From Eledone cirrhosa (taxonomy: Eukaryota), in NCBI GenBank assembly GCA_964016885.1, contig OZ024741.1:187302001-187366000 (forward strand): a stretch of 64,000 nt of DNA, read 5' to 3'. The notes under the pieces were generated by a model that saw nothing but the letters and a program-made list of their open reading frames with translations, was not told the origin of the DNA and did no database searches. Made by a program: the position numbers and the translations under genes. Shown in pieces: positions 5,765 through 60,880 of this stretch (positions are counted from its first letter, which is position 1; every line of letters begins with the position of its first letter).

Positions 5765-5933
5765 TTGCGAGGGTTTTTTTTATATGAAATCGTGTGTCGA
5801 AACATAGTTAACTCATTTGGTCATCAATGATAAACATTGATGGCCAAATGAATTAACTATGGAGATATAAAAGATTCAGAAGCGAAAACCAACCAAACAG
5901 TGAGTGTGTTCTGTTATTATTTCTGGCAATAAT

Positions 5934-6126
5934 GGCCAGTGGATTGGCAATATCGGTAGAGGGTCGGACGCCATGCTTTGACGCATAGAGTTACGGCCCT
6001 TGCCATTCTGAGTTCAAATCCCGCCGAGGTTAACTTTGCCTTTCACCCTTATGGGGTCGATAAAATAAAGTACCAGTAATACACTGGCTAATTCCTGGCC
6101 TTGTGCCGAAAGTAGAAACAATTATT
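5934..6126 (+). mobile_element. SINE family 1 with 18-bp TSD
   Basis: TSD ATTATTTCTGGCAATAAT at 5916-5933 and 6121-6138. The empty site is visible in the inverted partner arm near 5340-5370. Confidence 0.9.
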
Positions 6127-6263
6127 TCTGGCAATAATATCACAACAATATCACTCTCCCCAACTATAACAATATATATATTTGAAAAAAGAGAAAAGAA
6201 TGACTTCACTTGTAGTTCGAAAGATGAAGGTAATGACAGTTTGGTTCCATTGTGTCCGGACCT

Positions 6264-10002: not shown

Positions 10003-10086
<84 letters not shown>

Positions 10087-11413: not shown

Positions 11414-11430
11414 CTTATGATAATAATAAT

Positions 11431-12385
11431 GTTTTCTTTGGCCACAAGGGCCGTCATATAGGGGACAATACAATGGACAGGAACAGTGGGGTTTTACATT
11501 TAAATCGTGTAAAAATAATGTATATAAACAATAACAATAAATATTAAAAATACGAACAACAAAATTCGCAAGTAGGGAGAGAACCACCCAGGGGCGACTC
11601 AAGTACCCTACCCTGAATCACGCCTCTCATCCTCAAATCAACCAGCTCACAGGCCTTTCTTACAACATTCACCCACCTTTTAGCAAACTTTTGATTGTTT
11701 TAAATTAATCAGAGTCCCAAGAAGCCAGGTTTACTCACTATCCTCTCTACGATGTATCGCATGAGGCAGAGGTTATCGGGTATGGACCTGGTAGGGATTG
11801 CGCAATTTTGCGCCTTCCCTACCAGACCCACGACGACAAGCGCTAACCTCTTCGCTAACACCTTGGCCAAAATCTTAAACTTTGATTTCAACAGAGTTAT
11901 GGGCATGAAATTATCTACAGTATCCCTCTTGTCCTCGTCTTTAGCGTTACTATGCCCCGACTCACAGACCTAGGAATACTCCCGTTTAGCTATCAGTTGC
12001 AGTAGACCGCTTCGAAGAGAACAGAGAACCAGTCTGATGTTTCTACGTAAAACTCGTAGGGAAGACCATCCAAACCGGGTGACTAGCGCCACATACAACC
12101 GGCCAGGGCATCCTGAATCTCGTCTGACGTTATCGGCCTTCCGAAGCACTCGGCATCGGCTGGAGAAAGTCACGGGAGGCAGTCAAGGTAGGAACTGAAG
12201 TTTACCACCATCCCCGAGCCCCCGCCCTCCCCGAACAGTCAAACAAAGTGCGGGCGAAAGGCCGTACACATCTGTCTGGAATCGTTCAGCAGACGTTCGT
12301 CTGAGTCCGTCAAAGACCGAATTGTGGTTTTGTTACCATACTGCGCTTCCACCACACGGGCCCATTAAGCAGCTTTCGTTCCCTG
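11431..12385 (-). mobile_element. Older Tx1-family fragment (RT part, ORF2 C-terminus, 3'UTR), internally deleted
   Basis: Translates to PITLLKSKFKILAKVLAKRLALVV..AQNCAIP..IPDNLCLMRYIVER, homologous to ORF2 above. 3' end GGCCCTTGTGGCCAAAGAAAAC followed by (ATT)n. Confidence 0.88.
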
Positions 12386-37366: not shown

Positions 37367-37435
<69 letters not shown>

Positions 37436-37696
37436 TTTCTTTATTAACCACAAGGGTTTACATAAAGTAGACATTAAGGACAGTGCAGGACAATGCAGGA
37501 CGGTACAAATGGGCATTTCTGCGTGTAAAAAAACAAAAACAGAGGATGTAACAAAAATAACAATGAAAATAACAATGAAAAAATTCCCCAATAGGGGGGA
37601 GACTTCGGAGGGACATTTGTGGAGAAAGCCCAGTAAAAAGCCACAATGACCCTGACCACCAAGGCAAGTGCCCTCTCCCAGTTTTCCACCTTTAGT

Positions 37697-40600
37697 TTAC
37701 AGATATATACTCAGAGTCGGCCCATTCACTCGGGCCATTCTTGCTTCTCTCACCCATCTTTCAACAAAATGCTGGGAAGAGAGCACTTCCTTCTCTACTC
37801 TGATTTTCCTTTTCAAATGAAATTTGAAAAAGTCAATCAGAGCATCACCGAAGAGGTAAGTGCTCGTCTTCAGCCCTTTCAAACGTGTCCACCATACTAT
37901 CTCTTTCGCCATGGCCACCAGACAGATAAAAACTGCCTGCCCTTCCCGGCTAAAGGAGGAGGGCGGGGCAATCCTCACGATAGACTCAGATGATAGCTGG
38001 ATCCGTCCTAAACGCGACAGCAGGTGTTCGACATAAACCCACAAGTCAGCAATTTTCGGACACTGGACGAGTGCGTGCAGGACGGTTTCGTCGCCCTGCG
38101 CGCATCTCGGACATGCCCGGCTGACGGCACCTCCATGCCTGTAGAGTTTATCCCGAACTGGCAAGGCTCCTCGGTAGCACTGCCAGGCCAGAGATTTCTG
38201 GAAGTTGTCCATAGGCCCTGGCCCGAAAGTTCTTCCGAAGAGATTGGCTAGTTGATTTTCGTCGACGCCTAGAGTTTCCCCAAGTACGTCGTCGCTCTTC
38301 CCCTCCACTAATCCTCTATAGAACGCCGAGGTGGAGTTTCCACCGATCACATTGCCCGATTGGTCGAGGGCTGTGAGCGCCTGAAGACATTCCAGTCTCC
38401 AGGCGCTCCCTCTCGGTCTTCGCTTGACCCAGGACTGCAGCTCCGTCAAGGAAACGAGCTGGGGAAAAACGCGTCTAGCAAACGGCGACCACACCTGATC
38501 ACCGTCGAGGAAGAGGTGGAGATGTCGTAGCCTGAGCGCGTGCCTGCGCATCATCAGCCACGGCATGCCCAGCCCTCCACGTAGCGGGTGTTGACAACAG
38601 ATGGACCGCCTGACCATCGGAGCACGTCCCTTCCACAAAAAGCGAAAGAGCAAACGCTCCAGCGCAGTCAGGCGAGGCTTAGGACAAGGTACGACGGTTA
38701 GGCGGTAGCAGATGACAGACGCGATGTACGCGTTAGCCACCTCCGCTCGACCTTTCAGGGATAGCTTCCTCTCCGCCCATTTCTGGGTGAGAGAAGCCAC
38801 CCTGCTCGTCACCTCGTCCCAGTTTTTGTCCGTCTGGAGGTCCGGACCGAACCAGACCCCTAGCAATTTAACCGGTCCGTCCGTCCAGCGCCCGACGACG
38901 CTGTTGGACGGCATGGACCTGCCTCTCCAGGTGCCGAGCTGCAGGCCCACTGACTTTTCCTGGTTGATCATTGCTCCTGTCACCGCTTCGTATTCTCTTA
39001 GTGTAGTGCCGATCGCCTCGATGTGTTTGGCGTTCGACACCACTACGGTGACATCGTCCGCATATGCTGACACGGATCTTCCGCATCCTAGTTCGCGCGG
39101 GACTCCCCTCAACGTCTCCAGTTTGTGCAGTAATGGCTCGAGAGTCAATACGTACAAGAGGGACGAGAGGGGACATCCTTGGCGGACCGAGCGCATGATG
39201 TTGAACGGTTCCGACAGGTGACCGTTCACTCTCACCACAGAGCAGATGTCGCTGTGCATGGCAGCGATCCAGCCTCTGAAGACGGGCCCAAAGCCAGCCG
39301 CCCTCAGGACTGCCGCTAGGTAACGATGGTCGACCCTATCGAAAGCTTTCGACTGATCTAAATTGATCAAGGACCCACCCGTGCCAGGTTCCCTAGCTAC
39401 CCTCTCTACGATGTATCGCATGAGGTGGAGGTTGTCGTGGATGGATCTGTCGGGAATGGCGCATGTCTGCGCCTCTCCCACCAGACCACCAACGACAAGC
39501 GCCAACCTCTTTGCTAGCACCTTGGCCAAAATCTTAAACTCTGTGTTTAGCAGAGTTATGGGCCGGAAATTGTCTATGTTATCCCCCTTGTTCGGATCCT
39601 TTCTCAGCAGTGCCACCGCTCCTCGGCTCACAGAACTGGGAATTCTCCCGTTCTGTTGCCAGTTGCAGTAGACGTCCGCCAAGAGGCCTCCGAACAAGTC
39701 TGGCATCTGTACGTAAAGTTCATAGGGCAGACCATCCAAACCAGGCGATTTACCCCTTGTGCAGCCAGTCATTGCCTCCCGTACTTCAGCGGCTGTTATC
39801 GGCTTTTCGCAACACCTCGCCTCAGTGGCCGAGAGCCGCGGCAGCCCGTCGAGGTAGACACTAAAGTCCATCCCTCTACCCGGCCCCCCGCTGCCCCCGA
39901 ACAGCTGAGCGAAGTGTCGCTGAAAAGCTTCACACATTTGCCCGGGATCGAGTAGCATGCGCCCGTCGTGGTCCACCAAAGACCGGATCGTGGCTTTGTT
40001 GCCACGACGCGCCTCCGCCACTCGGGCCCATTGAACGGCTTTCGTCCCCTCGTGTCTGAGAGCACGCACCCTAGCTCTGACAACGCAGCCTTCGTGCTTT
40101 GCATTGAAGAATTGGTCAAGGGCCAATTTCGCCGCAAGCACGTCGGTCGCAATGCCTTTGCTAAGCGCCTCGTCTAATTTTCTAACTAGTTCTCCCTCTG
40201 CTCTATTTTTCTCTATTGCTAAAGCCTTACTAAACCTAATCGATTCTATTCTAATCGCTCTTTTCAGAGCAAACCACCACTTGTTGTTGACGATGGCCCC
40301 CGTCAACGCCCGCTTAACTAGTTCGCTAATCCGGTCTCTGTAGGCCTTGCGCGCTGGTAAGGACGCGTTTAGCTTCCAGTAGCCGGGTCCTCGTCTATGA
40401 AGCCTATCTAAGTCAAGCACACAGATCACGAATTTGTGGTCCGTGTAGCTGACTATCTTGAATTGTGGACAGCCTATGCTAGACCTATCTATTTCCCTAC
40501 AAAATACTCTATCTAGATATGATCTGGATGACCCTATGCGGTTTGTCCAAGTCCACATTGGCACATTCGGGAAATCCAATCGGTACCTGTCAGACAGTTC

Positions 40601-41116
40601 AAAACGCCTGAGCAGGTTGGTGAGGCTCTTGCACCCTCCACCCCTATCCGCTAATCCCACACAGTCCCAGCGTGCATCTAAGATCCCGTTCCAGTCGCCC
40701 ACTAACACTAAAGAGCGGGACGTTCCAAGAAAGGTCTCCAGACGCCGGAAGAAATCAGGCCGCCCTGCTCCTGTCGGGGCATAGACGGCCACTAGCCTGA
40801 AAGCTTGCCCGTCTCCGCTGGTCACGTCCAGCACCACCAGCTTACCCTCTGGGTCCAGGAAGATGGCCCGTATGGCGAGATCCAAACCTCTCCGAAAAAG
40901 TACAGCAACTCCTCCACCGGATCCAGGACGGCTGGGAGATGCGTACACATCGTAGCCGCCGAAGATCGGTGCGAAGGCCCGTGCTTCGGAGATTCTGGTC
41001 TCGCTGATGGCCACTACATCTATGTTTAGTGACCTGAGGTCGTTGAGCAGGTGACCCTGCTTCCATGACGACCCCAAGCCACGCGCATTTATGCTGCCTA
41101 TTCTGAGTGAGGTCAT
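37697..41116 (-). CDS. Tx1 ORF2: AP endonuclease + reverse transcriptase + C-terminal zinc-binding domain (1139 aa)
   Basis: APE motifs SINARGL, ISETR, VYAP, GDWN, YLDRV, YTDH. RT motifs KSPGLDG, FRPITLLNTEFKILAK, DQSKAFDRVDH, VRQGCPLS, YADD. C-terminal CPRC..ETVLHALVQC. Confidence 0.97.
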   Translation of the reverse strand: MTSLRIGSINARGLGSSWKQGHLLNDLRSLNIDVVAISETRISEARAFAPIFGGYDVYASPSRPGSGGGVAVLFRRGLDLAIRAIFLDPEGKLVVLDVTSGDGQAFRLVAVYAPTGAGRPDFFRRLETFLGTSRSLVLVGDWNGILDARWDCVGLADRGGGCKSLTNLLRRFELSDRYRLDFPNVPMWTWTNRIGSSRSYLDRVFCREIDRSSIGCPQFKIVSYTDHKFVICVLDLDRLHRRGPGYWKLNASLPARKAYRDRISELVKRALTGAIVNNKWWFALKRAIRIESIRFSKALAIEKNRAEGELVRKLDEALSKGIATDVLAAKLALDQFFNAKHEGCVVRARVRALRHEGTKAVQWARVAEARRGNKATIRSLVDHDGRMLLDPGQMCEAFQRHFAQLFGGSGGPGRGMDFSVYLDGLPRLSATEARCCEKPITAAEVREAMTGCTRGKSPGLDGLPYELYVQMPDLFGGLLADVYCNWQQNGRIPSSVSRGAVALLRKDPNKGDNIDNFRPITLLNTEFKILAKVLAKRLALVVGGLVGEAQTCAIPDRSIHDNLHLMRYIVERVAREPGTGGSLINLDQSKAFDRVDHRYLAAVLRAAGFGPVFRGWIAAMHSDICSVVRVNGHLSEPFNIMRSVRQGCPLSSLLYVLTLEPLLHKLETLRGVPRELGCGRSVSAYADDVTVVVSNAKHIEAIGTTLREYEAVTGAMINQEKSVGLQLGTWRGRSMPSNSVVGRWTDGPVKLLGVWFGPDLQTDKNWDEVTSRVASLTQKWAERKLSLKGRAEVANAYIASVICYRLTVVPCPKPRLTALERLLFRFLWKGRAPMVRRSICCQHPLRGGLGMPWLMMRRHALRLRHLHLFLDGDQVWSPFARRVFPQLVSLTELQSWVKRRPRGSAWRLECLQALTALDQSGNVIGGNSTSAFYRGLVEGKSDDVLGETLGVDENQLANLFGRTFGPGPMDNFQKSLAWQCYRGALPVRDKLYRHGGAVSRACPRCAQGDETVLHALVQCPKIADLWVYVEHLLSRLGRIQLSSESIVRIAPPSSFSREGQAVFICLVAMAKEIVWWTRLKGLKTSTYLFGDALIDFFKFHLKRKIRVEKEVLSSQHFVERWVREARMARVNGPTLSIYL

Positions 41117-41151
41117 GTTTAAAATAGAGTGGAAAAGATGGGAAAGACCAC

Positions 41152-43242
41152 TTACCGTATTTTTGGTAGAGGAGGGATGGTTTTTACATCCCTTTTCACT
41201 TGATCGTCTGGTGAAGGGACCGTTGAATCGTCCCTTCGGCTGGTCGTCGGCTCTTCTAAGAGAATGTCTGAATATACTCTTCGATTAATGGTTCCTCCTA
41301 GGTCCCTGAAATCACCAACTGCGTTGGGGAATTTCGTTTTAATGTTTGTGTATTGTTTCTGTGCTATTTTTAGCAGTCTTATGTTAGTTGGCGTTTTGAT
41401 TGGTGCTGGTATTATGTAGTCCTGTTGTGAAATGTCTGTGTGTTCAATTATGTAAGTCATTAGTTTCTTGTTGTGTGTGTTTATTGCCGTGCATTTGTTT
41501 TTCTGGGGGTGGGGTGTGGTTCTGCTATTTTCTTGTCGTTGTTGCTGGGTGTGTGTGTTTTGTTGTTGTGTTTGCGATGTTGGTGCTTGTGGTGGTGGTG
41601 TTGAAGGTGTTGTTGGCGGTGGGGTTGTCGCCGGTGGTGATGGTGGTGCTGGTGTGGGTGGTGATGGTGTTGGTGGTGTTGCTGCTGTGGGTCTCTTTGC
41701 AGTAGACTTTACCCTTTTCTCATTTCTTTCCTCCCTTTTCAAAGGCGACGATGCGCTGCTTCTGCGTTTGTGCCTTCTTGAGACCTTTTGCCATCCCTCT
41801 CCCACCTCACACTCCATGTCTGATTCTGTAAGGTCGGGGAGGGGTACCAGCTCCACTCTTTCACTTGTTGTTGTTGGTGATGTTTGCACTGGAGTCTCTG
41901 TTGCAGCTGCATTTGGTATTGCTGTTGTTGTTGTTAATATTTCCACTGCTGCTGCTGTCTTTGATTTCCGTGGAGTGGGTATGGGTGCCACGGACCTATC
42001 GTTCCTGGTTGCCGCTTGTCCTGTTGCTGGTAGCCGTGGAACCGGATTCGGGAGGAGGGGGGTTTTCTCCTTTCTCAGGGTCTTCTCGTTGCAGAAGGCC
42101 CTGAGGTGAGTCTTCGATCCACAGCGAAAGCATTTCGGGCGTTTGCCCTCAACACTTATGGGCAGTTGAGTGCCGTTATCGAAGTCTATCACATCCGGGA
42201 TAGCTTCGATGCACTCCTGGTTGGTTTGGATTAGCATCTCAATGGAGGAGCCGACCCAATCTTCTCTTACTTTTTTCTGTACTTGCAGTACAGTTGTTTT
42301 GTCCTCGATTCCGACGAGGACAGACGCGGCCAGCCAAGAAGGGGTCATTCCGGGGGGGACGTGGGTCAGTTTGACCCTCACAATTTTTTGCCCGCAGTAG
42401 GAGGGCACCAACACCATTTCCTCGCTCCTTAGGGTCACTACTGATTGGGCCTTTGCCTCCTGGGGTGTGGCAAAAAGTACGTCTACGGTGGCGTATTTTT
42501 TGCCTCGGGTGATGTGCGTTTTCCTCTGCCACACAGACCCCAAGGCTTTTTGTATTTGGGCCTCTGTGGCTCTTTCCACCCTACGGGATTTTGTACTTAC
42601 TGTACGGTACGTGACCGTACAGTGCTCTTGGGTTTCGAAAAAATTTTTCGCTGCTTTGCAGATTGCTCGGTGTCCGTTCTTTGTCACCATCTTCTTCGCT
42701 TCCTCTAATTCCTCATTTGTTATGAGGATTGTTTCCAAGTTTTTCGCAATACCTGCAAATGAGATTGGTTTGTCTCTGCTGTTGTTGTTGTCGTCAGAGC
42801 TGCTGGTACTTTTGTTGTTGCTGCAGGTACTACGACTACTGCCTCCGCCGCTGTTGCTGTGGTTGTTGTTGGTGTTGCTGCTGCTAATGCTGTTGTTGTT
42901 TATGCTGCTGGTGATGCTGTTGCGGCTGCTACTGTTGTTTTCATTGTCACTGTTGTTATTACGGCTGCTACTGCTATTATTCCTGACGTCAGACGAATGA
43001 ACTGGGTTTTTGTATTTCCCGCACACCTGTTTCGTCGCTGTCGTCGTCGTCGTGGAGAAACTTTGCACGCTTTGCACGAGACTTTTCTTTTCTTTCGTCA
43101 CTTGCGAAAGAGAAGGGAGGGAGAGAGACACATTTAAAGAAGGGAGGGAGAGAGACAATCTTCTCTCTGCTGTAGTGATGATTGAGGAAGAAGAAGACGG
43201 AATGAGTGGGAGTGACGTATGAAATTTCTTTTTCGTAGCCAT
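41152..43242 (-). CDS. Tx1 ORF1, gag-like nucleic-acid-binding protein (696 aa)
   Basis: Long ORF upstream of ORF2 with a CCHC knuckle CFRCGSKTHLRAFC, a Ser/Asn-rich N-terminal tract and a Pro/Thr/Gln-rich C-terminal tract. Confidence 0.92.
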   Translation of the reverse strand: MATKKKFHTSLPLIPSSSSSIITTAERRLSLSLPSLNVSLSLPSLSQVTKEKKSLVQSVQSFSTTTTTATKQVCGKYKNPVHSSDVRNNSSSSRNNNSDNENNSSSRNSITSSINNNSISSSNTNNNHSNSGGGSSRSTCSNNKSTSSSDDNNNSRDKPISFAGIAKNLETILITNEELEEAKKMVTKNGHRAICKAAKNFFETQEHCTVTYRTVSTKSRRVERATEAQIQKALGSVWQRKTHITRGKKYATVDVLFATPQEAKAQSVVTLRSEEMVLVPSYCGQKIVRVKLTHVPPGMTPSWLAASVLVGIEDKTTVLQVQKKVREDWVGSSIEMLIQTNQECIEAIPDVIDFDNGTQLPISVEGKRPKCFRCGSKTHLRAFCNEKTLRKEKTPLLPNPVPRLPATGQAATRNDRSVAPIPTPRKSKTAAAVEILTTTTAIPNAAATETPVQTSPTTTSERVELVPLPDLTESDMECEVGEGWQKVSRRHKRRSSASSPLKREERNEKRVKSTAKRPTAATPPTPSPPTPAPPSPPATTPPPTTPSTPPPQAPTSQTQQQNTHTQQQRQENSRTTPHPQKNKCTAINTHNKKLMTYIIEHTDISQQDYIIPAPIKTPTNIRLLKIAQKQYTNIKTKFPNAVGDFRDLGGTINRRVYSDILLEEPTTSRRDDSTVPSPDDQVKRDVKTIPPLPKIR

Positions 43243-43457
43243 GTTGTTTTTTGTTTAAAATGAAATTTTGGGTACAAAACCCCAATAACTGGTTATTTAA
43301 CCCCGAAGGGCCAAATAACGGACAGAAAGACCCCTCTCACGAGGAGGAGGGTGTCTTTATCAACAATTTGGTTCAAGTTTTAAACAATTTACAATTGTTT
43401 TAACGGTTAAAAATTACTATACCTTACAGAGCCGAGCCTCCGTCAACCATGGCATTC

Positions 43458-43492
<35 letters not shown>

Positions 43493-43762
43493 TAATAATG
43501 ATTTCTTTATTAACCACAAGGGTTTACATAAAGTAGACATTAAGGACAGTGCAGGACAATGCAGGACGGTACAAATGGGCATTTCTGCGTGTAAAAAAAA
43601 CAAAAACAGAGGATGTAACAAAAATAACAATGAAAATAACAATGAAAAATTCCCCAATAGGGGGGAGACTTCGGAGGGACATTTGTGGAGAAAGCCCAGT
43701 AAAAAGCCACAATGACCCTGACCACCAAGGCAAGTGCCCTCTCCCAGTTTTCCACCTTTAGT

Positions 43763-46700
43763 TTACAGATATATACTCAGAGTCGGCCCATTCACTCGGG
43801 CCATTCTTGCTTCTCTCACCCATCTTTCAACAAAATGCTGGGAAGAGAGCACTTCCTTCTCTACTCTGATTTTCCTTTTCAAATGAAATTTGAAAAAGTC
43901 AATCAGAGCATCACCGAAGAGGTAAGTGCTCGTCTTCAGCCCTTTCAAACGTGTCCACCATACTATCTCTTTCGCCATGGCCACCAGACAGATAAAAACT
44001 GCCTGCCCTTCCCGGCTAAAGGAGGAGGGCGGGGCAATCCTCACGATAGACTCAGATGATAGCTGGATCCGTCCTAAACGCGACAGCAGGTGTTCGACAT
44101 AAACCCACAAGTCAGCAATTTTCGGACACTGGACGAGTGCGTGCAGGACGGTTTCGTCGCCCTGCGCGCATCTCGGACATGCCCGGCTGACGGCACCTCC
44201 ATGCCTGTAGAGTTTATCCCGAACTGGCAAGGCTCCTCGGTAGCACTGCCAGGCCAGAGATTTCTGGAAGTTGTCCATAGGCCCTGGCCCGAAAGTTCTT
44301 CCGAAGAGATTGGCTAGTTGATTTTCGTCGACGCCTAGAGTTTCCCCAAGTACGTCGTCGCTCTTCCCCTCCACTAATCCTCTATAGAACGCCGAGGTGG
44401 AGTTTCCACCGATCACATTGCCCGATTGGTCGAGGGCTGTGAGCGCCTGAAGACATTCCAGTCTCCAGGCGCTCCCTCTCGGTCTTCGCTTGACCCAGGA
44501 CTGCAGCTCCGTCAAGGAAACGAGCTGGGGAAAAACGCGTCTAGCAAACGGCGACCACACCTGATCACCGTCGAGGAAGAGGTGGAGATGTCGTAGCCTG
44601 AGCGCGTGCCTGCGCATCATCAGCCACGGCATGCCCAGCCCTCCACGTAGCGGGTGTTGACAACAGATGGACCGCCTGACCATCGGAGCACGTCCCTTCC
44701 ACAAAAAGCGAAAGAGCAAACGCTCCAGCGCAGTCAGGCGAGGCTTAGGACAAGGTACGACGGTTAGGCGGTAGCAGATGACAGACGCGATGTACGCGTT
44801 AGCCACCTCCGCTCGACCTTTCAGGGATAGCTTCCTCTCCGCCCATTTCTGGGTGAGAGAAGCCACCCTGCTCGTCACCTCGTCCCAGTTTTTGTCCGTC
44901 TGGAGGTCCGGACCGAACCAGACCCCTAGCAATTTAACCGGTCCGTCCGTCCAGCGCCCGACGACGCTGTTGGACGGCATGGACCTGCCTCTCCAGGTGC
45001 CGAGCTGCAGGCCCACTGACTTTTCCTGGTTGATCATTGCTCCTGTCACCGCTTCGTATTCTCTTAGTGTAGTGCCGATCGCCTCGATGTGTTTGGCGTT
45101 CGACACCACTACGGTGACATCGTCCGCATATGCTGACACGGATCTTCCGCATCCTAGTTCGCGCGGGACTCCCCTCAACGTCTCCAGTTTGTGCAGTAAT
45201 GGCTCGAGAGTCAATACGTACAAGAGGGACGAGAGGGGACATCCTTGGCGGACCGAGCGCATGATGTTGAACGGTTCCGACAGGTGACCGTTCACTCTCA
45301 CCACAGAGCAGATGTCGCTGTGCATGGCAGCGATCCAGCCTCTGAAGACGGGCCCAAAGCCAGCCGCCCTCAGGACTGCCGCTAGGTAACGATGGTCGAC
45401 CCTATCGAAAGCTTTCGACTGATCTAAATTGATCAAGGACCCACCCGTGCCAGGTTCCCTAGCTACCCTCTCTACGATGTATCGCATGAGGTGGAGGTTG
45501 TCGTGGATGGATCTGTCGGGAATGGCGCATGTCTGCGCCTCTCCCACCAGACCACCAACGACAAGCGCCAACCTCTTTGCTAGCACCTTGGCCAAAATCT
45601 TAAACTCTGTGTTTAGCAGAGTTATGGGCCGGAAATTGTCTATGTTATCCCCCTTGTTCGGATCCTTTCTCAGCAGTGCCACCGCTCCTCGGCTCACAGA
45701 ACTGGGAATTCTCCCGTTCTGTTGCCAGTTGCAGTAGACGTCCGCCAAGAGGCCTCCGAACAAGTCTGGCATCTGTACGTAAAGTTCATAGGGCAGACCA
45801 TCCAAACCAGGCGATTTACCCCTTGTGCAGCCAGTCATTGCCTCCCTTACTTCAGCGGCTGTTATCGGCTTTTCGCAACACTTCGCCTCAGTGGCCGAGA
45901 GCCGCGGCAGTCCGTCGAGGTAGACACTAAAGTCCATCCCTCTACCCGGCCCCCCGCTGCCCCCGAACAGCTGAGCGAAGTGTCGCTGAAAAGCTTCACA
46001 CATTTGCCCGGGATCGAGTAGCATGCGCCCGTCGTGGTCCACCAAAGACCGGATCGTGGCTTTGTTGCCACGACGCGCCTCCGCCACTCGGGCCCATTGA
46101 ACGGCTTTCGTCCCCTCGTGTCTGAGAGCACGCACCCTAGCTCTGACAACGCAGCCTTCGTGCTTTGCATTGAAGAATTGGTCAAAGGCCAATTTCGCCG
46201 CAAGCACGTCGGTCGCAATGCCTTTGCTAAGCGCCTCGTCTAATTTTCTAACTAGTTCTCCCTCTGCTCTATTTTTCTCTATTGCTAAAGCCTTACTAAA
46301 CCTAATCGATTCTATTCTAATCGCTCTTTTCAGAGCAAACCACCACTTGTTGTTGACGATGGCCCCCGTCAACGCCCGCTTAACTAGTTCGCTAATCCGG
46401 TCTCTGTAGGCCTTGCGCGCTGGTAAGGACGCGTTTAGCTTCCAGTAGCCGGGTCCTCGTCTATGAAGCCTATCTAAGTCAAGCACACAGATCACGAATT
46501 TGTGGTCCGTGTAGCTGACTATCTTGAATTGTGGACAGCCTATGCTAGACCTATCTATTTCCCTACAAAATACTCTATCTAGATATGATCTGGATGACCC
46601 TATGCGGTTTGTCCAAGTCCACATTGGCACATTCGGGAAATCCAATCGGTACCTGTCAGACAGTTCAAAACGCCTGAGCAGGTTGGTGAGGCTCTTGCAC

Positions 46701-47182
46701 CCTCCACCCCTATCCGCTAATCCCACACAGTCCCAGCGTGCATCTAAGATCCCGTTCCAGTCGCCCACTAACACTAAAGAGCGCGACGTTCCAAGAAAGG
46801 TCTCCAGACGCCGGAAGAAATCAGGCCGCCCTGCTCCTGTCGGGGCATAGACGGCCACTAGCCTGAAAGCTTGCCCGTCTCCGCTGGTCACGTCCAGCAC
46901 CACCAGCTTACCCTCTGGGTCCAGGAAGATGGCCCGTATGGCGAGATCCAAACCTCTCCGAAAAAGCACAGCAACTCCTCCACCCGATCCAGGACGGCTG
47001 GGAGATGCGTACACATCGTAGCCGCCGAAGATCGGTGCGAAGGCCCGTGCTTCGGAGATTCTGGTCTCGCTGATGGCCACTACATCTATGTTTAGTGACC
47101 TGAGGTCGTTGAGCAGGTGACCCTGCTTCCATGACGACCCCAAGCCACGCGCATTTATGCTGCCTATTCTGAGTGAGGTCAT
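43763..47182 (-). CDS. Tx1 ORF2 (APE-RT, 1139 aa), copy 2
   Basis: Same motifs as copy 1. Differs at KLALDQ/KLAFDQ and EARCC/EAKCC. Confidence 0.97.
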   Translation of the reverse strand: MTSLRIGSINARGLGSSWKQGHLLNDLRSLNIDVVAISETRISEARAFAPIFGGYDVYASPSRPGSGGGVAVLFRRGLDLAIRAIFLDPEGKLVVLDVTSGDGQAFRLVAVYAPTGAGRPDFFRRLETFLGTSRSLVLVGDWNGILDARWDCVGLADRGGGCKSLTNLLRRFELSDRYRLDFPNVPMWTWTNRIGSSRSYLDRVFCREIDRSSIGCPQFKIVSYTDHKFVICVLDLDRLHRRGPGYWKLNASLPARKAYRDRISELVKRALTGAIVNNKWWFALKRAIRIESIRFSKALAIEKNRAEGELVRKLDEALSKGIATDVLAAKLAFDQFFNAKHEGCVVRARVRALRHEGTKAVQWARVAEARRGNKATIRSLVDHDGRMLLDPGQMCEAFQRHFAQLFGGSGGPGRGMDFSVYLDGLPRLSATEAKCCEKPITAAEVREAMTGCTRGKSPGLDGLPYELYVQMPDLFGGLLADVYCNWQQNGRIPSSVSRGAVALLRKDPNKGDNIDNFRPITLLNTEFKILAKVLAKRLALVVGGLVGEAQTCAIPDRSIHDNLHLMRYIVERVAREPGTGGSLINLDQSKAFDRVDHRYLAAVLRAAGFGPVFRGWIAAMHSDICSVVRVNGHLSEPFNIMRSVRQGCPLSSLLYVLTLEPLLHKLETLRGVPRELGCGRSVSAYADDVTVVVSNAKHIEAIGTTLREYEAVTGAMINQEKSVGLQLGTWRGRSMPSNSVVGRWTDGPVKLLGVWFGPDLQTDKNWDEVTSRVASLTQKWAERKLSLKGRAEVANAYIASVICYRLTVVPCPKPRLTALERLLFRFLWKGRAPMVRRSICCQHPLRGGLGMPWLMMRRHALRLRHLHLFLDGDQVWSPFARRVFPQLVSLTELQSWVKRRPRGSAWRLECLQALTALDQSGNVIGGNSTSAFYRGLVEGKSDDVLGETLGVDENQLANLFGRTFGPGPMDNFQKSLAWQCYRGALPVRDKLYRHGGAVSRACPRCAQGDETVLHALVQCPKIADLWVYVEHLLSRLGRIQLSSESIVRIAPPSSFSREGQAVFICLVAMAKEIVWWTRLKGLKTSTYLFGDALIDFFKFHLKRKIRVEKEVLSSQHFVERWVREARMARVNGPTLSIYL

Positions 47183-47217
47183 GTTTAAAATAGAGTGGAA
47201 AAGATGGGAAAGACCAC

Positions 47218-49299
47218 TTACCGTATTTTTGGTAGAGGAGGGATGGTTTTTACATCCCTTTTCACTTGATCGTCTGGTGAAGGGACCGTTGAATCGTCCC
47301 TTCGGCTGGTCGTCGGCTCTTCTAAGAGAATGTCTGAATATACTCTTCGATTAATGGTTCCTCCTAGGTCCCTGAAATCACCAACTGCGTTGGGGAATTT
47401 CGTTTTAATGTTTGTGTATTGTTTCTGTGCTATTTTTAGGGGTCTTATGTTAGTTGGCGTTTTGATTGGTGCTGGTATTATGTAGTCCTGTTGTGAAATG
47501 TCTGTGTGTTCAATTATGTAAGTCATTAGTTTCTTGTTGTGTGTGTTTATTGCCGTGCATTTGTTTTTCTGGGGGTGGGGTGTGGTTCTGCTATTTTCTT
47601 GTCGTTGTTGCTGGGTGTGTGTGTTTTGTTGTTGTGTTTGCGATGTTGGTGCTTGTGGTGGTGGTGTTGAAGGTGTTGTTGGCGGTGGGGTTGTCGCCGG
47701 TGGTGATGGTGGTGCTGGTGTGGGTGGTGATGGTGTTGGTGGTGTTGCTGCTGTGGGTCTCTTTGCAGTAGACTTTACCCTTTTCTCATTTCTTTCCTCC
47801 CTTTTCAAAGGCGACGATGCGCTGCTTCTGCGTTTGTGCCTTCTTGAGACCTTTTGCCATCCCTCTCCCACCTCACACTCCATGTCTGATTCTGTAAGGT
47901 CGGGGAGGGGTACCAGCTCCACTCTTTCACTTGTTGTTGTTGGTGATGTTTGCACTGGAGTCTCTGTTGCAGCTGCATTTGGTATTGCTGTTGTTGTTGT
48001 TAATATTTCCACTGCTGCTGCTGTCTTTGATTTCCGTGGAGTGGGTATGGGTGCCACGGACCTATCGTTCCTGGTTGCCGCTTGTCCTGTTGCTGGTAGC
48101 CGTGGAACCGGATTCGGGAGGAGGGGGGTTTTCTCCTTTCTCAGGGTCTTCTCGTTGCAGAAGGCCCTGAGGTGAGTCTTCGATCCACAGCGAAAGCATT
48201 TCGGGCGTTTGCCCTCAACACTTATGGGCAGTTGAGTGCCGTTATCGAAGTCTATCACATCCGGGATAGCTTCGATGCACTCCTGGTTGGTTTGGATTAG
48301 CATCTCAATGGAGGAGCCGACCCAATCTTCTCTTACTTTTTTCTGTACTTGCAGTACAGTTGTTTTGTCCTCGATTCCGACGAGGACAGACGCGGCCAGC
48401 CAAGAAGGGGTCATTCCGGGGGGGACGTGGGTCAGTTTGACCCTCACAATTTTTTGCCCGCAGTAGGAGGGCACCAACACCATTTCCTCGCTCCTTAGGG
48501 TCACTACTGATTGGGCCTTTGCCTCCTGGGGTGTGGCAAAAAGTACGTCTACGGTGGCGTATTTTTTGCCTCGGGTGATGTGCGTTTTCCTCTGCCACAC
48601 AGACCCCAAGGCTTTTTGTATTTGGGCCTCTGTGGCTCTTTCCACCCTACGGGATTTTGTACTTACTGTACGGTACGTGACCGTACAGTGCTCTTGGGTT
48701 TCGAAAAAATTTTTCGCTGCTTTGCAGATTGCTCGGTGTCCGTTCTTTGTCACCATCTTCTTCGCTTCCTCTAATTCCTCATTTGTTATGAGGATTGTTT
48801 CCAAGTTTTTCGCAATACCTGCAAATGAGATTGGTTTGTCTCTGCTGTTGTTGTTGTCGTCAGAGCTGCTGGTACTTTTGTTGTTGCTGCAGGTACTACG
48901 ACTACTGCCTCCGCCGCTGTTGCTGTGGTTGTTGTTGGTGTTGCTGCTGCTAATGCTGTTGTTGTTTATGCTGCTGGTGATGCTGTTGCGGCTGCTACTG
49001 TTGTTTTCATTGTCACTGTTGTTATTACGGCTGCTACTGCTATTATTCCTGACGTCAGACGAATGAACTGGGTTTTTGTATTTCCCGCACACCTGTTTCG
49101 TCGCTGTCGTCGTCGTCGTGGAGAAACTTTGCACGAGACTTTTCTTTTCTTTCGTCACTTGCGAAAGAGAAGGGAGGGAGAGAGACACATTTAAAGAAGG
49201 GAGGGAGAGAGACAATCTTCTCTCTGCTGTAGTGATGATTGAGGAAGAAGAAGACGGAATGAGTGGGAGTGACGTATGAAATTTCTTTTTCGTAGCCAT
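47218..49299 (-). CDS. Tx1 ORF1 (693 aa), copy 2
   Basis: Same as copy 1 except that it lacks one VQS repeat and has IRPLK in place of IRLLK. Confidence 0.92.
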   Translation of the reverse strand: MATKKKFHTSLPLIPSSSSSIITTAERRLSLSLPSLNVSLSLPSLSQVTKEKKSLVQSFSTTTTTATKQVCGKYKNPVHSSDVRNNSSSSRNNNSDNENNSSSRNSITSSINNNSISSSNTNNNHSNSGGGSSRSTCSNNKSTSSSDDNNNSRDKPISFAGIAKNLETILITNEELEEAKKMVTKNGHRAICKAAKNFFETQEHCTVTYRTVSTKSRRVERATEAQIQKALGSVWQRKTHITRGKKYATVDVLFATPQEAKAQSVVTLRSEEMVLVPSYCGQKIVRVKLTHVPPGMTPSWLAASVLVGIEDKTTVLQVQKKVREDWVGSSIEMLIQTNQECIEAIPDVIDFDNGTQLPISVEGKRPKCFRCGSKTHLRAFCNEKTLRKEKTPLLPNPVPRLPATGQAATRNDRSVAPIPTPRKSKTAAAVEILTTTTAIPNAAATETPVQTSPTTTSERVELVPLPDLTESDMECEVGEGWQKVSRRHKRRSSASSPLKREERNEKRVKSTAKRPTAATPPTPSPPTPAPPSPPATTPPPTTPSTPPPQAPTSQTQQQNTHTQQQRQENSRTTPHPQKNKCTAINTHNKKLMTYIIEHTDISQQDYIIPAPIKTPTNIRPLKIAQKQYTNIKTKFPNAVGDFRDLGGTINRRVYSDILLEEPTTSRRDDSTVPSPDDQVKRDVKTIPPLPKIR

Positions 49300-49514
49300 G
49301 TTGTTTTTTGTTTAAAATGAAATTTTGGGTACAAAACCCCAATAACTGGTTATTTAACCCCGAAGGGCCAAATAACGGACAGAAAGACCCCTCTCACGAG
49401 GAGGAGGGTGTCTTTATCAACAATTTGGTTCAAGTTTTAAACAATTTACAATTGTTTTAACGGTTAAAAATTACTATACCTTACAGAGCCGAGCCTCCGT
49501 CAACCATGGCATTC

Positions 49515-49549
<35 letters not shown>

Positions 49550-49714
49550 TAATAATAATGTCCGTTTACAATTGTTTCTCTACTCCAGATAATGCCTTTA
49601 CGGTTTTGGCTTCTAACTAATTCACTAATCTCTCTTGTCCTCTCCTATCTCCATCTCTCTCTTTAAGATTGGTTACTCTTGAACTGTGTATATATATATA
49701 TATATATAAATATA

Positions 49715-54521: not shown

Positions 54522-54564
<43 letters not shown>

Positions 54565-57500
54565 GAATGCCATGGCTCGGCTCTGTAAGGTATAGTAATT
54601 TTTAACCGCTATAACAATTGTAAATTGTTTAAAACTTGAACCAAATTGTAGATAAAAACACCCTCTTCCTCGTGAGAGGGGTCTTTCTGCCCGTTATTTC
54701 ACCCTTCGGCGTTAAATAACCGCTTATTGGGGTTTTGTGCCCAATATTCATTTTAAACCGTAAAAAAAACATGGCTACAAAAATGAATTTTCACAAGTCA
54801 CTCCCACTCATTCCGTCTTCTTCTTCCTCAATAGTCACTACATCAGAGAGACTTTTTGTCTCTCTCCCTCCCTTCTCTAAATGTGGTGTCGCATCGGCCC
54901 CAAGCGACGCCATTAAAGAAACAGAAAAATATATTTTCTGGTAGCTTTCACCAAGAGAGCGTGCATTCCATGGAACATTTCTCCACGACGACGACAACGA
55001 CGAAAAATGTGTGCGGTAAATACGTAAAGCAATTTCATTCGTCTGACGTCATGAAGAATAGCAGCAGCAGCCGTAATAACAGCACCAGCAGCAACAGTGA
55101 CAAGGAAAACACTGGTAGCAGCCGCAACAACATCAGCAGCAGCATAAACAACAACAGCAGCAACAGCAACAACAACAGCAGCATCAGCAACAACAACAAC
55201 AACAACCACTGCAACAGCGGCGGCGGTCGTAGTACCAGCAGCAACAACAAAAGTAACAGCAGCTCTGACGACAACAACAACAACAACAAGAAGAAAGAAA
55301 AACCAATCTCGTTTGCAGGTATCGCAAAGAACCTGGAAACCATCCTCATAACAAATGAGGAATTACAGGAAGCAAAGAAGATGGTGACGAAAATCGGACA
55401 CCGATCAATCTGCAAGGCAGCCGAAAAATGTTTCGAAACCCAACAGCACTGTACGGTCACGTACCGTACAGTAAGCACAGCATCACGTAGGGTTGAAAGA
55501 GCCACAGAGGCTCAAATACAAAAAGCCTTAGGGTCTGTGTGGAAGCGGAAAACGCATATCACCCGAGGCAAGAAATATGCCACCGTGGACGTGCATTTTG
55601 CCACATCCCAGGAGGCAAAGGCTCAATTCTTAGTGACCCTAAGGAGTGAGGAAATGGTGTTGGTGTCCTCCTACTGCAGGCAAAAAATTGTAATGGCCCT
55701 CCAAAAAAGGGATGGCCCCTTCTTGGCTGGCCGCGTCTGTCCTCGTCGGAATCGAGGACAGAACAACTGTACTGCAAGTACTGAAAAAAGTACGAGAAGA
55801 TTGGGTAGGCACCTCCATTGAGATGTTAATGCAAACCAACCAGGAGTGCATCGAAGCTATCCCGGATATGATAGACTTCGATAACGGCACTCAACTGCCC
55901 ATAAGGGTTGAGGGCAAACACCCGAAATGCTTTGGCTGTGGGTCGAAGACTCACCTCAGGGCCTTCTGCAATGAGAAGACCCTGAGAAAGGAGAAAACCC
56001 CCCTCCTTCCAAAACCGGTTCCACTGCTACCAGCAACAGGGCAGGCGGCAAACAGGTAGGATAGGTCCGTGGCACCCATACCCACGCCACGGAAATCAAG
56101 AACAGCAGCAGCAGTGGAAGTATTAACAACAACAACAGTAATACCAAATGCAGCTGCAACAGAGACTCCACTGCAACCATCACCAACAAGAATAAGTGAA
56201 AGAGTGGAGCTGGTACCCCTCCCCGACATCACAGAATCGGACATGGAGTGTGAGGTGGGAGAGGGATGGCAAAAGGTCGCAAGAAGGCACAAACACAGAA
56301 GCAGCGCATCGTCGCCTTCGAAAGGGGAGGGAAGAAATGAAAAAAGAGTAAAGGCTACTGCAAAGAGACTTACAGCAGCAACATCACCAACACCATCTCC
56401 ACCCACACTAGCACCACCATCACCACCGGCGGCAACCCCACCGCCAACAACAACAACACCTTCAACACCCCCACCTCAAGAACCAACATCGCAAACACAA
56501 CAACAAAACACACACACCCAGCAACAACGACAAGAAAATAGCAGAACCACACCGCACCCCCAGAAAAAGAAATGCACAGCAATAAATACACACAACAAGA
56601 AACTAATGACTTACATAATTGAACACACAGATATTTCACAGCACGACTACATAATACCAGCACCAATCAAAACACCAGCGAACATAAGACTGTTAAGAAT
56701 AAAACAGAAACAATACACAAACATTAAAATAAAATTCCCCAACGCAGTTGTTGATTTCAGAGACCTAGGAGGGACACTCAACCGGAGAGTATACTCGGAT
56801 ATACTCTCAGAAGAGCCGACGACCAGCTGAAGGGACGATTCACCAGACGATCAAGTAGAAAGGGATGGAGAAACCATCCTTCCTATACGAGAAGTAAGGT
56901 AAGTGGTCTTTCCCATCTTTTCCACTCCTTTTCAACATGACCTCACTCAGAATAGGCAGCATAAATGCGCGTCGTTTGGGGTCGTCATGGAAGCAGGGCC
57001 ACCTGCTCAACGACCTCAGGTCACTAAACATAGATGTAGTGGCCATCAGCGAGACCAGAATCTCCGAAGCAGGGGCCTTCGCACCGATCTTCGGTGCTAC
57101 GATGTGTACGCATCTCCCAGCCGTCCGGGATCGGGGGGAGGGAGTTGCTGTGCTTTTTCGGAGAGGTTTGGATCTCGCCATACGGGCCATCTTCCTGGAC
57201 CCAGAAGGTAAGTTGGTGGTGCTAGACGTGACCAGCGGAGACGAGCAAGCTTTCAGGCTAGTGGCCGTCTATGCCCCGACAGGAGCAGGGCGGCCTGAAT
57301 TCTTCCGGCGTCTGGAGACCTTTCTTGGAACGTCCCGCTCTTTAGTGTTAGGGGGTGACTGGAACGGGATCTTAGATGCAATCTGGGACTGTGTGGGATT
57401 AGCGGATAGGGGAGAAGGGTGAAAGAGCCTCACCAACCTGCTCAGGCGTTTTGAACTGTCTGACAGGTACCGATTGGATTTCCCGAATGTGCCAATGTGG

Positions 57501-60160
57501 ACTTGGACAAACCGCATCGGGTCATCCAGATCATATCTAGATAGAGTATTTTGTAGGGAAATAGATAGGTCTAGCATAGGCTGTCCACAATTCAAGATAG
57601 TCAGCTACACGGACCACAAATTCGTGATCTGTGTGCTTGACTTAGATAGGCTTCATAGACGAGGACCCGACTACTGGAAGCTAAACGCGTCCTTACCAGC
57701 GCCCAAGGTCTACAGAGACCGGATTAGCGAACTAGTTAAGCGGGCGTTGACGGGGGCCATCGTCAACAAGTAGTGGTTTGCTCTGAAAAGAGCGATTAGA
57801 ATAGAGTCCATTAGGTTTAGTAAGGCTTTAGCTATAGAGAAAAATAGAGCAGAGGGAGAACTAGTTAGAAAATTAGACGTGGTGCTTAGCAAAGGCATCG
57901 CGACCGACGTACTTGCGGCGAAATTGGCCCTTGACCAATTATTCAATGCAAAGCACGAAGGCTGCGTTGTCAGAGCTAGGGTGCGTGCTCTCAGACACGA
58001 GGGGACGAAAGCCGTTCAATGGGCCCGAGTGGCGGAGGCGCGTCGTGGCAACAAAGCCACACTCCGGTCTTTGGTGGACCACGACGGGCGCATGCTACTC
58101 GATCCCGGGAAAATGTGTGAAGCTTTTCAGCGACACTTCGCTCAGCTTTTCGAGTGCAGCGGCGGGCCGGATCGAGGGATGGACTTCAGTGTCTACCTCG
58201 ACGGATTGCCGTGGCTCTCGGCCACTGAGGCGGAGTGTTGCGAAAAGCTGATAACAGCCGCTGAAGTAAGGGAGGCAATGACTGGCTGCACAAGGGGTAA
58301 ATCGTCTGGTTTGGATGGTCTGCCCTATGAACTTTACGCACAGATTCCAGACTTGTTCGGAGGCCTCTTGGCGGACCTCTACTGCAACTGGCAACGAACG
58401 GGAGAATTCCCAGCTCTGTGAGCCGAAGAGCGGTGGCGCTGCTGAGAAAGGATCCGAACAAGGGGGATAACATAGATAATTTCAGGCCCATAACTCTACT
58501 AAACACAGAGTTCAAGATTTTGGCCAAGGTGCTACCAAAGAGGTTGGCGCTTGTCGTTGGTGGTCTGGTGGGAGAGGCGCAGACGTGCGCCATTCGCGAC
58601 AGATTCATCCACGACAACCTCCACTTCATGCGATACATCGTAGAGAGGGTAGCTAGGGAACCTGGCACGGGTGGATCCTTGATCAATTTAGATCAGTCGA
58701 AAGCTTTCGATAGGGTCGACCATCGTTACCTAGCGGCAGTCCTGAGGCTATGGGCCCGTCTTCAGAGGCTGGATCGCTGCCATGCACAGCGACATCTGCT
58801 CTGTGGTGAGAGTGAACGGTCACCTTTCGGAACCGTTCAACATCATGCGCTCGGTCCGCCAAGGATGTCCCCTGTCGTCCCTCTTGTACGTATTGACTCT
58901 CGAGCCATTACTGCACAAACTGGAGACGTTGAGGGGGGTCCTGTGTGAACTACGATGCGGAAGATCCGTGTCAGCATATGCGGACGATATCACCGTAGTG
59001 GTGTCGAACGCCAAACACATCGAGGCGATCGGCACTACACTAAGAGAATACGAAGCGGTTACAGGAGCAATGATCAACCAGGAAAGGTCAGTGGGCCTGC
59101 AGCTCGGCACCTGGAGAGGCAGGTCCATGCCGTCCAACAGCGTCGTCGGGCGCTGGACGGACGGACCGGTTAAATTGCTAGGGGTCTGGTTCGGTCCAGA
59201 CCTCCAGACGGACAAAAACTGGGACGAGGTGACGAGCAGGGTGGCTTCTCTCACCCAGAAATGGGCCGAGAGGAAGCTATCCCTGAAAGGTCGAGCGGAG
59301 GTGGCCAACGCGTACATCGCGTCCGTCATCTACTACCGCCTGACCGTCGTACCTTGTCCTAAACTCCGCCTGACTGCGCTGGAGCGTTTGCTCTTTCGCT
59401 TTTTGTGGAAGGGACGTGCTCCGATGGTCAGGCGGTCCATCTGCTGTCAACACCCGCTACGTGGAGGGCTGGGCATGCCGTGGCTGATGATGCGCAGACA
59501 CGCGCTCAGGCTACGACATCTCCACCTCTTCCTCGACAGTGATCAGGTGTGGTCGCCGTTTGCTAGACACGTTTTTCCCCAGCTCTCAGCTGGGTTTTTC
59601 CCCGGTTTTTCCCCGGATCCAGCTATCAGCTGAGTCCATCGTGAGGATTGCCCCGCCCTCTTCCTATAGCCGGGAAGGGCAGGCAGTTTTTATCTGTCTG
59701 GTGGCCATGGCGAAAGAGATAGTATGGTGGACACGTTTGAAAGGGCTGAAGACTTACCTCTTCGGTGATGCCCTGATTAACTTTTTCAAATTTCATTTGA
59801 AAAGGAAAATCAGGGTAGAGAGGGAAGTGCTCTCTTCCCAGCATTTTGTTGAAAGATGGGTGAGAGAAGCAAGTATGGCCCAAATGAATGGGCCTTCTCT
59901 GAGTATGTGTCTGTAAATTAAAGGTGGAAAACTGGGAGAGGGCACTTGCCCTGGTGGTCAGGGTCACTGTGGTCTTTTAATGGGCTTTCTCCACAAATGT
60001 CCCTCGGAAGTCTCCCCCCTATTGGGGAATTTTTTCTTTGTTATTTTATTACATCCTCTGTTTTTTTACACGCAGAAATGCCCATTTGTACCGTCCTGTA
60101 TTGTCCTGTACTGTCCTTAATGTCTACTTTATGTAAACCCTTGTGGTTAATAAAGAAAAC
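54565..60160 (+). mobile_element. Decayed full-length Tx1 copy 3 (frameshifts, stops, internal deletion)
   Basis: Same 5' start (GAATGCCATGG) and 3' end as copies 1/2. ORF1 and ORF2 are broken into fragments (54856, 55712, 56069, 56937, 57474, 57879, 58418, 58782, 59539). (ATT)n on both sides. Confidence 0.93.
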
Positions 60161-60177
60161 ATTATTATTATTATTAT

Positions 60178-60221
<44 letters not shown>

Positions 60222-60880
60222 TTGCTATTATTATTATTATTGTTATAGATGATCAGCAGCAGAATTATGACACGACATGTGTAATAGTCGTTGAGACAGG
60301 TGAGGAGGTGGAGGCTGAGTATTATGCGGCTCATTAGTGGTTTTCTAATACCAATGTCTGGTGTTAAGTAGTCTTCAACAATTTATTGTCTGAACTACAT
60401 ATAATGATGTAGATCATCAATAATATTTAGAAAGATAGGATAGGCATACAGACGAAACATAAAACATAACACATGAGTCTCCCTCCATTTTCTTTCGTCT
60501 TTAGTGGTAGTTTACTCGATTTATTCAACTACTATTACTAGTTATTTGCATTGCGGCGACTATAATTTCAAAGTTTAACATCCCCCATTGCGTTGTAAGT
60601 CGACCATATGTTGTTATGTTTCTAGCTTCTCGCTTAAATCTTCTAAAATAACGATAATTAGTGGCTTAGACCCCGTTGGTATAACTGTTAAAAGCGCTCA
60701 CTCGACCTACGATGTTCTTTTCCACTCAGACATCTCAGTTGTTCACACTTTTTCCGTCTCTGGGAGTACTTTATCCGATTTATTGAGCTATTATTTATAG
60801 TTATCTGCATTGGAGCAACTATATTTTCATGCACACACACACACACACACGATGTGTATGTGTGTGTGTGTGTGTATGTA

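Follow-up and report, generated by a model that had tools for sequence, protein, structure and literature searches.

The window analysed here is a stretch of 64,000 nucleotides of Eledone cirrhosa DNA (contig OZ024741.1, positions 187,302,001 to 187,366,000). It contains a head-to-tail pair of ~6-kb copies of a long interspersed nuclear element (LINE) on the minus strand, in each of which both open reading frames (ORFs) are open, a third copy on the plus strand, an old relative of the LINE, and an abundant short interspersed nuclear element (SINE) of ~190 bp that occupies 21 intervals. The LINE likely belongs to the Tx1 clade and likely has an ATT-based target, and the hairpin predicted at its 3' end recurs in the SINE. 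Taken as first stated, the finding adds one microsatellite target to those of a clade in which such targets are familiar, and is modest; the probable partnership with the SINE through the 3' hairpin is the more interesting part. The LINE copies, the tracts that border them and the old relative are listed below.

37368..37433, minus strand: 3' tract of copy 1, (ATT)22 (tail plus target), directly abutting the 3' end
37434..43457, minus strand: copy 1, full length, 6024 bp; 215-bp 5' untranslated region (UTR), ORF1, 35-bp spacer, ORF2, 263-bp 3' UTR, no poly(A)
37697..41116, minus strand: ORF2 of copy 1, 1139 amino acids (aa); apurinic/apyrimidinic-type endonuclease (APE), reverse transcriptase (RT) and zf-RVT, catalytic motifs present
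41152..43242, minus strand: ORF1 of copy 1, 696 aa; one CCHC knuckle, and a ZCCHC3-like RNA-binding region as a lead only
43458..43499, minus strand: dimer junction, (ATT)3-TTT-(ATT)10, between copies 1 and 2, 5' of copy 1
43500..49514, minus strand: copy 2, full length, 6015 bp; ORF1 at 47218-49299 (693 aa) and ORF2 at 43763-47182 (1139 aa), both open
49515..49559, minus strand: 5' tract of the dimer, (ATT)4-TTT-(ATT)10, preceding copy 2
54523..54564, plus strand: (ATT)14 before copy 3, with in-register degenerate triplets upstream of the tract
54565..60160, plus strand: copy 3, both ends present; ~430 bp of ORF2 lost, frameshifts, two stops
60161..60241, plus strand: compound tract (ATT)6(AGT)14 ATT GCT (ATT)5 after copy 3
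11431..12384, minus strand: old relative, ~70% nucleotide identity, an internally deleted ORF2 fragment plus 3' end; ends in a GGCC-CUUGU-GGCC hairpin and (ATT)3

The LINE copies and their classification

All three copies start at the same base, ATT|GAATGCCATGG (ATT|GAATG in each copy; positions 43457, 49514 and 54565), have ATT runs at both sides and end in ATT runs without poly(A), in agreement with the first-pass annotation of this DNA, which had reported a common start base and (ATT)n on both sides. The annotation had also spoken of three full-length copies and of an intact, recently active family with both ORFs open in copies 1 and 2 and few differing sites. Copies 1 and 2 are indeed full length, with ORFs of 696/693 and 1139 aa, and differ at 12 places (nine substitutions, one 9-bp indel and two 1-bp indels), whereas copy 3 keeps its ends but is broken in ORF2. 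The near-identity of the two intact copies alone is no proof of recent transposition, as they were possibly duplicated in place. Between copy 3 and copy 2, 332 of 5495 aligned sites differ (6.0%; 9.4% in ORF1 and 3.8% in ORF2), and the change is synonymous in 46 of the 105 changed codons, against an expected share of 0.28 under neutral decay (P 3e-4). This synonymous excess indicates that copy 3 belongs to a sister subfamily.

ORF2 contains the Pfam domains Exo_endo_phos, RVT_1 and zf-RVT, with the APE at the N terminus, the zinc finger at the C terminus and no RNase H. Its best PDB match is human L1 ORF2p (E 5e-119, and 1e-38 for R2), and the element belongs to the L1 group of retrotransposons without long terminal repeats (non-LTR). 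The sole named close homologue of ORF2 is a protein of Argonauta hians (73%), which by itself would make an octopod the probable host. A quick tree of the RT, with 54 rows, two left out for short matches and no curated Tx1 references, places the query in a clade with the A. hians protein and one unnamed NCBI protein (support 100), whose sister consists of 13 unnamed proteins (support 98). The enclosing group of 36 rows, weak in the Shimodaira-Hasegawa-like approximate likelihood ratio test (SH-aLRT 82), includes an automatically named TX1 protein and two proteins that have ZCCHC3-type domains, but neither plant L1 nor the two fish rows that bear names.

The CCHC knuckle is invariant in all 13 aligned ORF1 sequences, and zf-CCHC is called in 12 of them, the query being the one without a call. 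A feature-level Atlas lead connects ORF1 to ZCCHC3 RNA-binding domains (0.90) and is to be taken as a lead only; a word search with ORF1 found no match, and aligning it pairwise to a ZCCHC3-type protein gave no significant score. Tx1 ORF1 proteins typically have an RRM-type (RNA recognition motif) region and a CCHC knuckle. The Tx1 type proposed by the annotation fits the anatomy, with two ORFs, an N-terminal APE, RT, zf-RVT and a CCHC knuckle, and on these sequence features the LINE likely belongs to the Tx1 clade. The hairpin loop of the APE can be aligned gap-free to that of human L1; compared with the grafted Tx1L loop, it lacks two residues. This loop shapes nicking profiles, yet is not modular (PMC1950540), and its L1 length gives a hint, no more, of a short target consensus.

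The stretch 43380-49660 was compared with contigs of four of the 20 sequencing runs listed, in alignments that skip the flanking repeats at both ends. The family is abundant in two runs, with 59,993 and 79,711 contigs, 12,074 and 8,256 of which are at least 99% alike (contig depth does not equal copy number), and these abundant, closely similar contigs indicate that the young subfamily exists beyond this assembly. A third run has ~99% identical pieces over nearly the entire length of the element; the fourth (X14) is without it and gives low-complexity matches only. The whole stretch is spanned by no listed contig, and no ATT-flanked truncation was found among 24 of the 6254 loose-end rows listed, in which repeat flanks are skipped. 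In two runs, summed contig depth drops ~3.5-fold at the ORF2/ORF1 boundary (47160-47182) and stays fairly even over the length of ORF2, which suggests subfamilies with a common ORF2 and differing ORF1 rather than a gradient of 5' truncation.

ATT tracts and the origin of the dimer

No (AAT)5+ tract of the window is free, each being situated at an element end or at most 70 bp from one, while free tracts are present for six other triplet classes. On the 5' side, ATT runs of 14-15 units are found at 2/2 independent full-length loci. At neither locus was a unique-sequence target duplication found outside the ATT runs, the best matches of 7 and 5 bp not being adjacent. Since a run of its own that the element carried into a short site would leave a unique duplication flanking the runs, this favours a target origin of the 5' run. 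Copy 3 is flanked on both sides by in-register degenerate triplets, as within an old tract. We consider ATT-based targeting by the LINE likely. It should be noted that a short reverse transcriptase fragment (54290-54505), which we take to be RTE-like, has its end immediately upstream of the ATT tract that precedes copy 3, and no second match in the window.

The annotation had gone further, holding that the family is apparently specific for (AAT)n microsatellites and that the 5' microsatellite, which cannot be the element's tail, most simply marks the target. An ATT-based target agrees with the former, but the specificity is drawn from two loci and the linked SINE uses short ATTAT sites; the lack of an outer duplication agrees with the latter, but to deny that the run could belong to the element goes too far, since it may have been borne by the RNA. 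The same target is found at 2/2 independent full-length loci and at 0/1 for the old relative, which lacks its 5' part; these are few copies, and the threshold used in the literature for a target-specific family, one sequence type in more than 20% of flanks, is meant for many flanks (PMC4494074).

The window holds two independent full-length insertions, not three. The tracts 5' of copy 2 and of copy 1 share a TTT interruption and a 10-unit run, and the outer 3' tract is a pure (ATT)22. The common TTT-(ATT)10 indicates that copies 1 and 2 are not independent samples of the target, and counting the dimer as two insertions was rejected on this ground.

A single insertion, later duplicated in place, probably gave rise to the dimer, and an unequal exchange of the tail with the 5' ATT tract would directly yield the shared TTT-interrupted tract. 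All nine substitutions between the copies lie within 1.6 kb (P 2e-4), with none in 4.4 of 6.0 kb, and five of the seven in ORF2 are synonymous (P 0.02). This clustered, synonymous-biased pattern suggests a patch from another active family member, and not neutral drift after duplication. We give an even chance to duplication plus conversion, in which the central 1.6 kb would have been overwritten by another family member after unequal exchange had formed the dimer. An RNA-borne 5' run is unlikely, and equally so a second insertion with a long target duplication, which would need to span at least 33 bp to copy the TTT, against 11-20 bp for the duplications of the SINE; an assembly error is less likely still.

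Head-to-tail arrays also occur among relatives elsewhere. A scan for related loci found none in viral contigs and, in metagenome contigs, distant relatives only (best-segment identity 22-42%), with the predicted 3' hairpin present in 0/7 distant loci that have a 3' region. A 41-44% relative fills whole contigs of one bacterial metagenome-assembled genome (MAG; loci L081-L117 and L122) as head-to-tail arrays with units of ~6.4-6.8 kb. ORF2 is nearly constant in these units and is combined with several ORF1 types, and no microsatellite separates one unit from the next. These contigs are probably mis-binned DNA of an animal host, and the lineage may be prone to forming tandem arrays. Compared with the window, the flanks of the array loci have (AT)n only, in the part of the listing covered. 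On another MAG contig, a distant relative (28%) lies between matches to U1 small nuclear RNA (snRNA; L118:3036-3199, 9961-10137 and 18183-18346) and is possibly a U1-array-associated Tx1.

The SINE, its insertion sites and the predicted 3' hairpin

The SINE carries A- and B-box-like motifs, and an Rfam search of one copy returned nothing real. The copies and hairpins referred to below are the following.

5915..6140, plus strand: example SINE copy (~190 bp), one of the 18 events described below; its target duplication spans 18 bp and begins with ATTAT, and its 3' end has the CUUGU hairpin
10984..11430, minus strand: a stack of two SINE copies that directly adjoins the old relative's ATT tail
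37446..37458, minus strand: predicted 3' hairpin AACC-CUUGU-GGUU of copy 1, the loop ending 16 nt before the ATT run (fold computed on copy 2)
43512-43524, minus strand: predicted 3' hairpin of copy 2
60136-60148, plus strand: predicted 3' hairpin of copy 3

After two fragments had been dropped and one nested pair merged, the 21 intervals gave 18 events. Target duplications were anchored without their first five bases, a score that 33 of 306 cross-pairs also reach, and 12 of the 18 events have such a duplication, 11-20 bp long. Its genomic 5' copy begins with ATTAT in nine cases, with ATTAA and ATTAC in one each, and with GAAAA in one that is mis-registered, so that 11 of the 12 start with ATTA; ATTAT occurs at 0.26% of background positions. 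The base at -1 is T or C in 11/12. All 11 ATTA-starting sites have at most three ATT units and are short sites, not long tracts. The two SINEs stacked on the tail of the old relative bear out the annotation's view that each insertion creates a new target, and two further SINE-on-SINE stacks are present in the window. Two SINE copies (82-410 and 30617-30945) share their 5' flank, in inverted orientation and at 98.8% over 329 bp, and differ in their 3' flanks; this is a duplicated or recombined piece. The single tRNA called by ARAGORN, a tRNA-Ser(gga) at 25783-25856, may be SINE-derived.

The 3' ends of LINE and SINE have a CTTGT loop in common, closed by different stems: the young copies have AACC/GGTT, the old relative GGCC/GGCC, the SINE TGGC/GCCA and the 41-44% relatives AAGGC/GCCTT. 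The distance from CTTGT to the ATT run is 16 nt in both LINE and SINE, and 13 nt in the old relative, whose 3' end matches that of the young LINE with a score of 77 against a shuffle maximum of 43. Among the 115 CTTGT sites in the window, 13 have a stem of at least 4 bp; 12 of them belong to 3' ends, either of the LINE (4/4 copies) or of the SINE (8). Across the 12 distinct hairpin rows used for covariation, 95.8% of cells are paired and three of the four stem pairs have changes on both sides; none of 500 shuffles reached as high, and slid controls were lower. Anchored at the ends, the match between LINE and SINE has a median of 14/22, which is equalled by 3 of 1982 pseudo-ends for the young copy and by 1 of 1842 for copy 3. 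The features that define stringent LINE-SINE pairs, a shared 3' end and a conserved stem-loop, are present here as a common loop, a 16-nt spacing and a compensated stem, within a short part and in hand-picked rows. On this sequence comparison we consider it rather probable that the LINE lineage mobilises the SINE, whose actual driver may be an older subfamily.

Proposed mechanism, alternatives and related systems

We lean, if only slightly, towards a reading in which a Tx1-like lineage recognises the predicted CUUGU hairpin and inserts at short (T/C)|ATTAT sites, with (ATT)n as the densest targets, and in which the SINE rides along. ORF2 would bind the predicted CUUGU-loop hairpin at the RNA's 3' end, and the APE would nick the strand that reads AAT, cutting 5'-ATAAT/R between pyrimidine and purine, as L1 does in TTTT/AA. 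The freed AAT-3'OH would pair with the (AUU)n end of the RNA and prime reverse transcription, and a second nick 11-20 bp away would make the target duplication, invisible inside a pure tract. That the SINE, probably using the LINE enzyme, lands at short ATTAT sites argues for a short-motif preference, and the young subfamily may prefer long tracts more than the older, SINE-moving subfamilies. The data are compatible both with a preference set by the endonuclease and with one set by pairing between tail and target. It is also conceivable, although rather unlikely, that an octopod Tx1, still active and guided by the hairpin, drives one of the large SINE expansions of octopuses and has narrowed from Y|ATTAT to long (ATT)n in its youngest subfamily.

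Several observations weigh against the short-motif reading and the partnership. The SINE sites have at most three ATT units against at least 14 at both LINE loci, leaving the short-motif model incomplete for the LINE; this difference suggests either that the young subfamily has a more restricted preference or that its 5' run came with the RNA. There are only two independent full-length loci, and a 5'-truncated copy of the young family was not seen in contig alignments that skip flanking repeats. The 5' boundary of the old relative is without ATT and no target duplication was found upstream of it, a boundary that may be secondary given the large internal deletion. As for the hairpin, the LINE-SINE likeness is short (~22 nt), the 13 rows were hand-picked for showing the motif, by folding energy the 3' ends are no better than shuffled sequences (z -0.4 to -1.6), and the anchored match is not significant for the old relative (103/300). 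In a sliding test, the last window of the young copy was the best for 2 of 17 SINE tails (median rank 37/399) and that of copy 3 for none of the 17; that of the old relative was the best for 11. The 41-44% relatives have the hairpin, yet their arrays have no ATT between units.

The long runs next to the LINE are what a young family strictly specific for long (ATT)n microsatellites would leave, as Kibi and Koshi are specific for theirs and whatever the older subfamilies or the SINE did. Runs of 14-15 units at 2/2 LINE loci, against four or more units at 0/11 ATTA-starting SINE sites, agree with such specificity, as do the position of copy 3 inside an in-register degenerate tract extending to both sides and the lack of a free (AAT)5+ tract in 46 kb. 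We nevertheless regard it as unlikely, because it would be inferred from a sample of two, the endonuclease loop has the length of that of L1, and short sites were used by the old relative and the SINE. The 5' run may also have been borne by the RNA, through a transcription start in an upstream tract or a jump of the RT onto the (AUU)n end of another RNA, in which case each full-length copy would arrive with a 5' run already attached, TTT included, and a dimer would form in a single event or when one copy inserts into the tail of a neighbour. This would account for the identical TTT-(ATT)10 before copies 1 and 2, for similar 5' lengths (14-15) at unrelated loci, for synonymous-biased differences that suggest two donors, and for the long head-to-tail arrays with differing ORF1 types formed by relatives. 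However, insertion of such an RNA into a short site is expected to leave a unique duplication outside the runs, which is missing; copy 3 has no TTT, and copies 1 and 2 are without substitutions over 4.4 of 6.0 kb. We therefore hold an RNA-borne run to be improbable.

Finally, there might be no real targeting or partnership, the ATT runs being expanded tails or chance, the SINE having been moved by another LINE clade, or the dimer being an assembly duplication. The small numbers, the shortness of the likeness between LINE and SINE and the lack of a listed contig across the compared stretch would suit this explanation. It is made very improbable by the 5' run, which cannot be a chance tail at two loci when such tracts are otherwise absent, by the 12 places at which copies 1 and 2 differ and by the paired changes in the hairpin stem.

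Among known Tx1 families of microsatellites, Kibi is found in (TC)n, Koshi in (TTC)n and crocodilian families in (TTCC)n/(TTTC)n (PMC4494074). The present element is likewise a Tx1-type APE element inside a microsatellite; theirs, however, are other repeats in other hosts, whereas here the repeat is ATT and the SINE suggests a short motif. The target is not that of Kibi or Koshi, as the flanks are (ATT)n instead of (TC)n or (TTC)n. The same microsatellite class, TAA being equal to AAT/ATT, is used by Dong, with which identity was rejected too: the present element has two ORFs and an N-terminal APE, not the single ORF and C-terminal restriction-like endonuclease of the R4 clade. Dong ends in TAA on the sense strand, opposite to the ATT of the present element. 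Dong elements target TAA microsatellites, including a snail family (PMC3812793), and belong to the R4 clade, encoding a restriction-like endonuclease (PMC4640811); a review places Dong among APE types, and of the LINE classes with recent activity in Octopus vulgaris, 'Dong-R4' is the most numerous (PMC13282606 Table 1). The annotation's suggestion of an undescribed specificity can thus be kept in part. Neither an ATT-targeting Tx1 nor an octopus SINE-Tx1 hairpin pair was found in the literature searched, which is weak evidence of novelty with curated Repbase and Dfam outside its scope; but an AAT-type target is already known for the non-LTR element Dong. The human L1 endonuclease has a hairpin loop of equal length and a short A+T-rich consensus with a Y/R nick, as proposed here, the consensus being putatively ATAAT/R against TTTT/AA; the present element is also without poly(A).

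The crocodilian Tx1-Mar has been inferred to mobilise SINEU from a shared target preference (PMC4494074). In both cases a Tx1 lineage is inferred to move SINEs; the link there consists of target choice and snRNA heads, and here of a 3' hairpin that both partners have and of a short ATT motif. Binding of a 3' hairpin by ORF2 was shown for zebrafish L2 elements (ZfL2; PMC4176376), and stringent LINE-SINE pairs with a 3' stem-loop are known for ZfL2 (PMC4176376) and monocot L1 (PMC3472496). With these pairs the present one shares a conserved loop, a compensated stem and a short tandem-repeat end in both partners, but its common part is only ~22 nt long and its hairpin is predicted from sequence. 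A table of 58 SINE/LINE pairs includes no mollusc pair and no partner named Tx1 (PMC3747384 Table 1), and no partner LINE for cephalopod SINEs is named in the excerpts of the cephalopod repeat literature searched.

SINEs make up 11.6% of the O. vulgaris genome, in which 80 L1-Tx1 consensus sequences are described, with 13 families recently active and no targets named for them in the excerpts searched (PMC13282606). If the partnership is true, a Tx1 partner with a defined hairpin and a defined short target would explain both the spread of the SINE and the stacking of its copies. The intact APE, its loop of L1 length and the preference for an ATT register offer a simple test of whether the endonuclease or the pairing of RNA tail and target chooses the site. 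If the narrowing is true, one genome would record the emergence of target specificity, with an intact element at hand.

Two tandem repeats were also noted in the window. A 469-bp unit (2.8 copies, 99%) lies immediately left of the dimer (35950-37243) and has an inverted, ~88% identical relative at 16791-17654. A CAT/CAC-rich minisatellite of ~19 92/181-bp units occupies 19457-21770.

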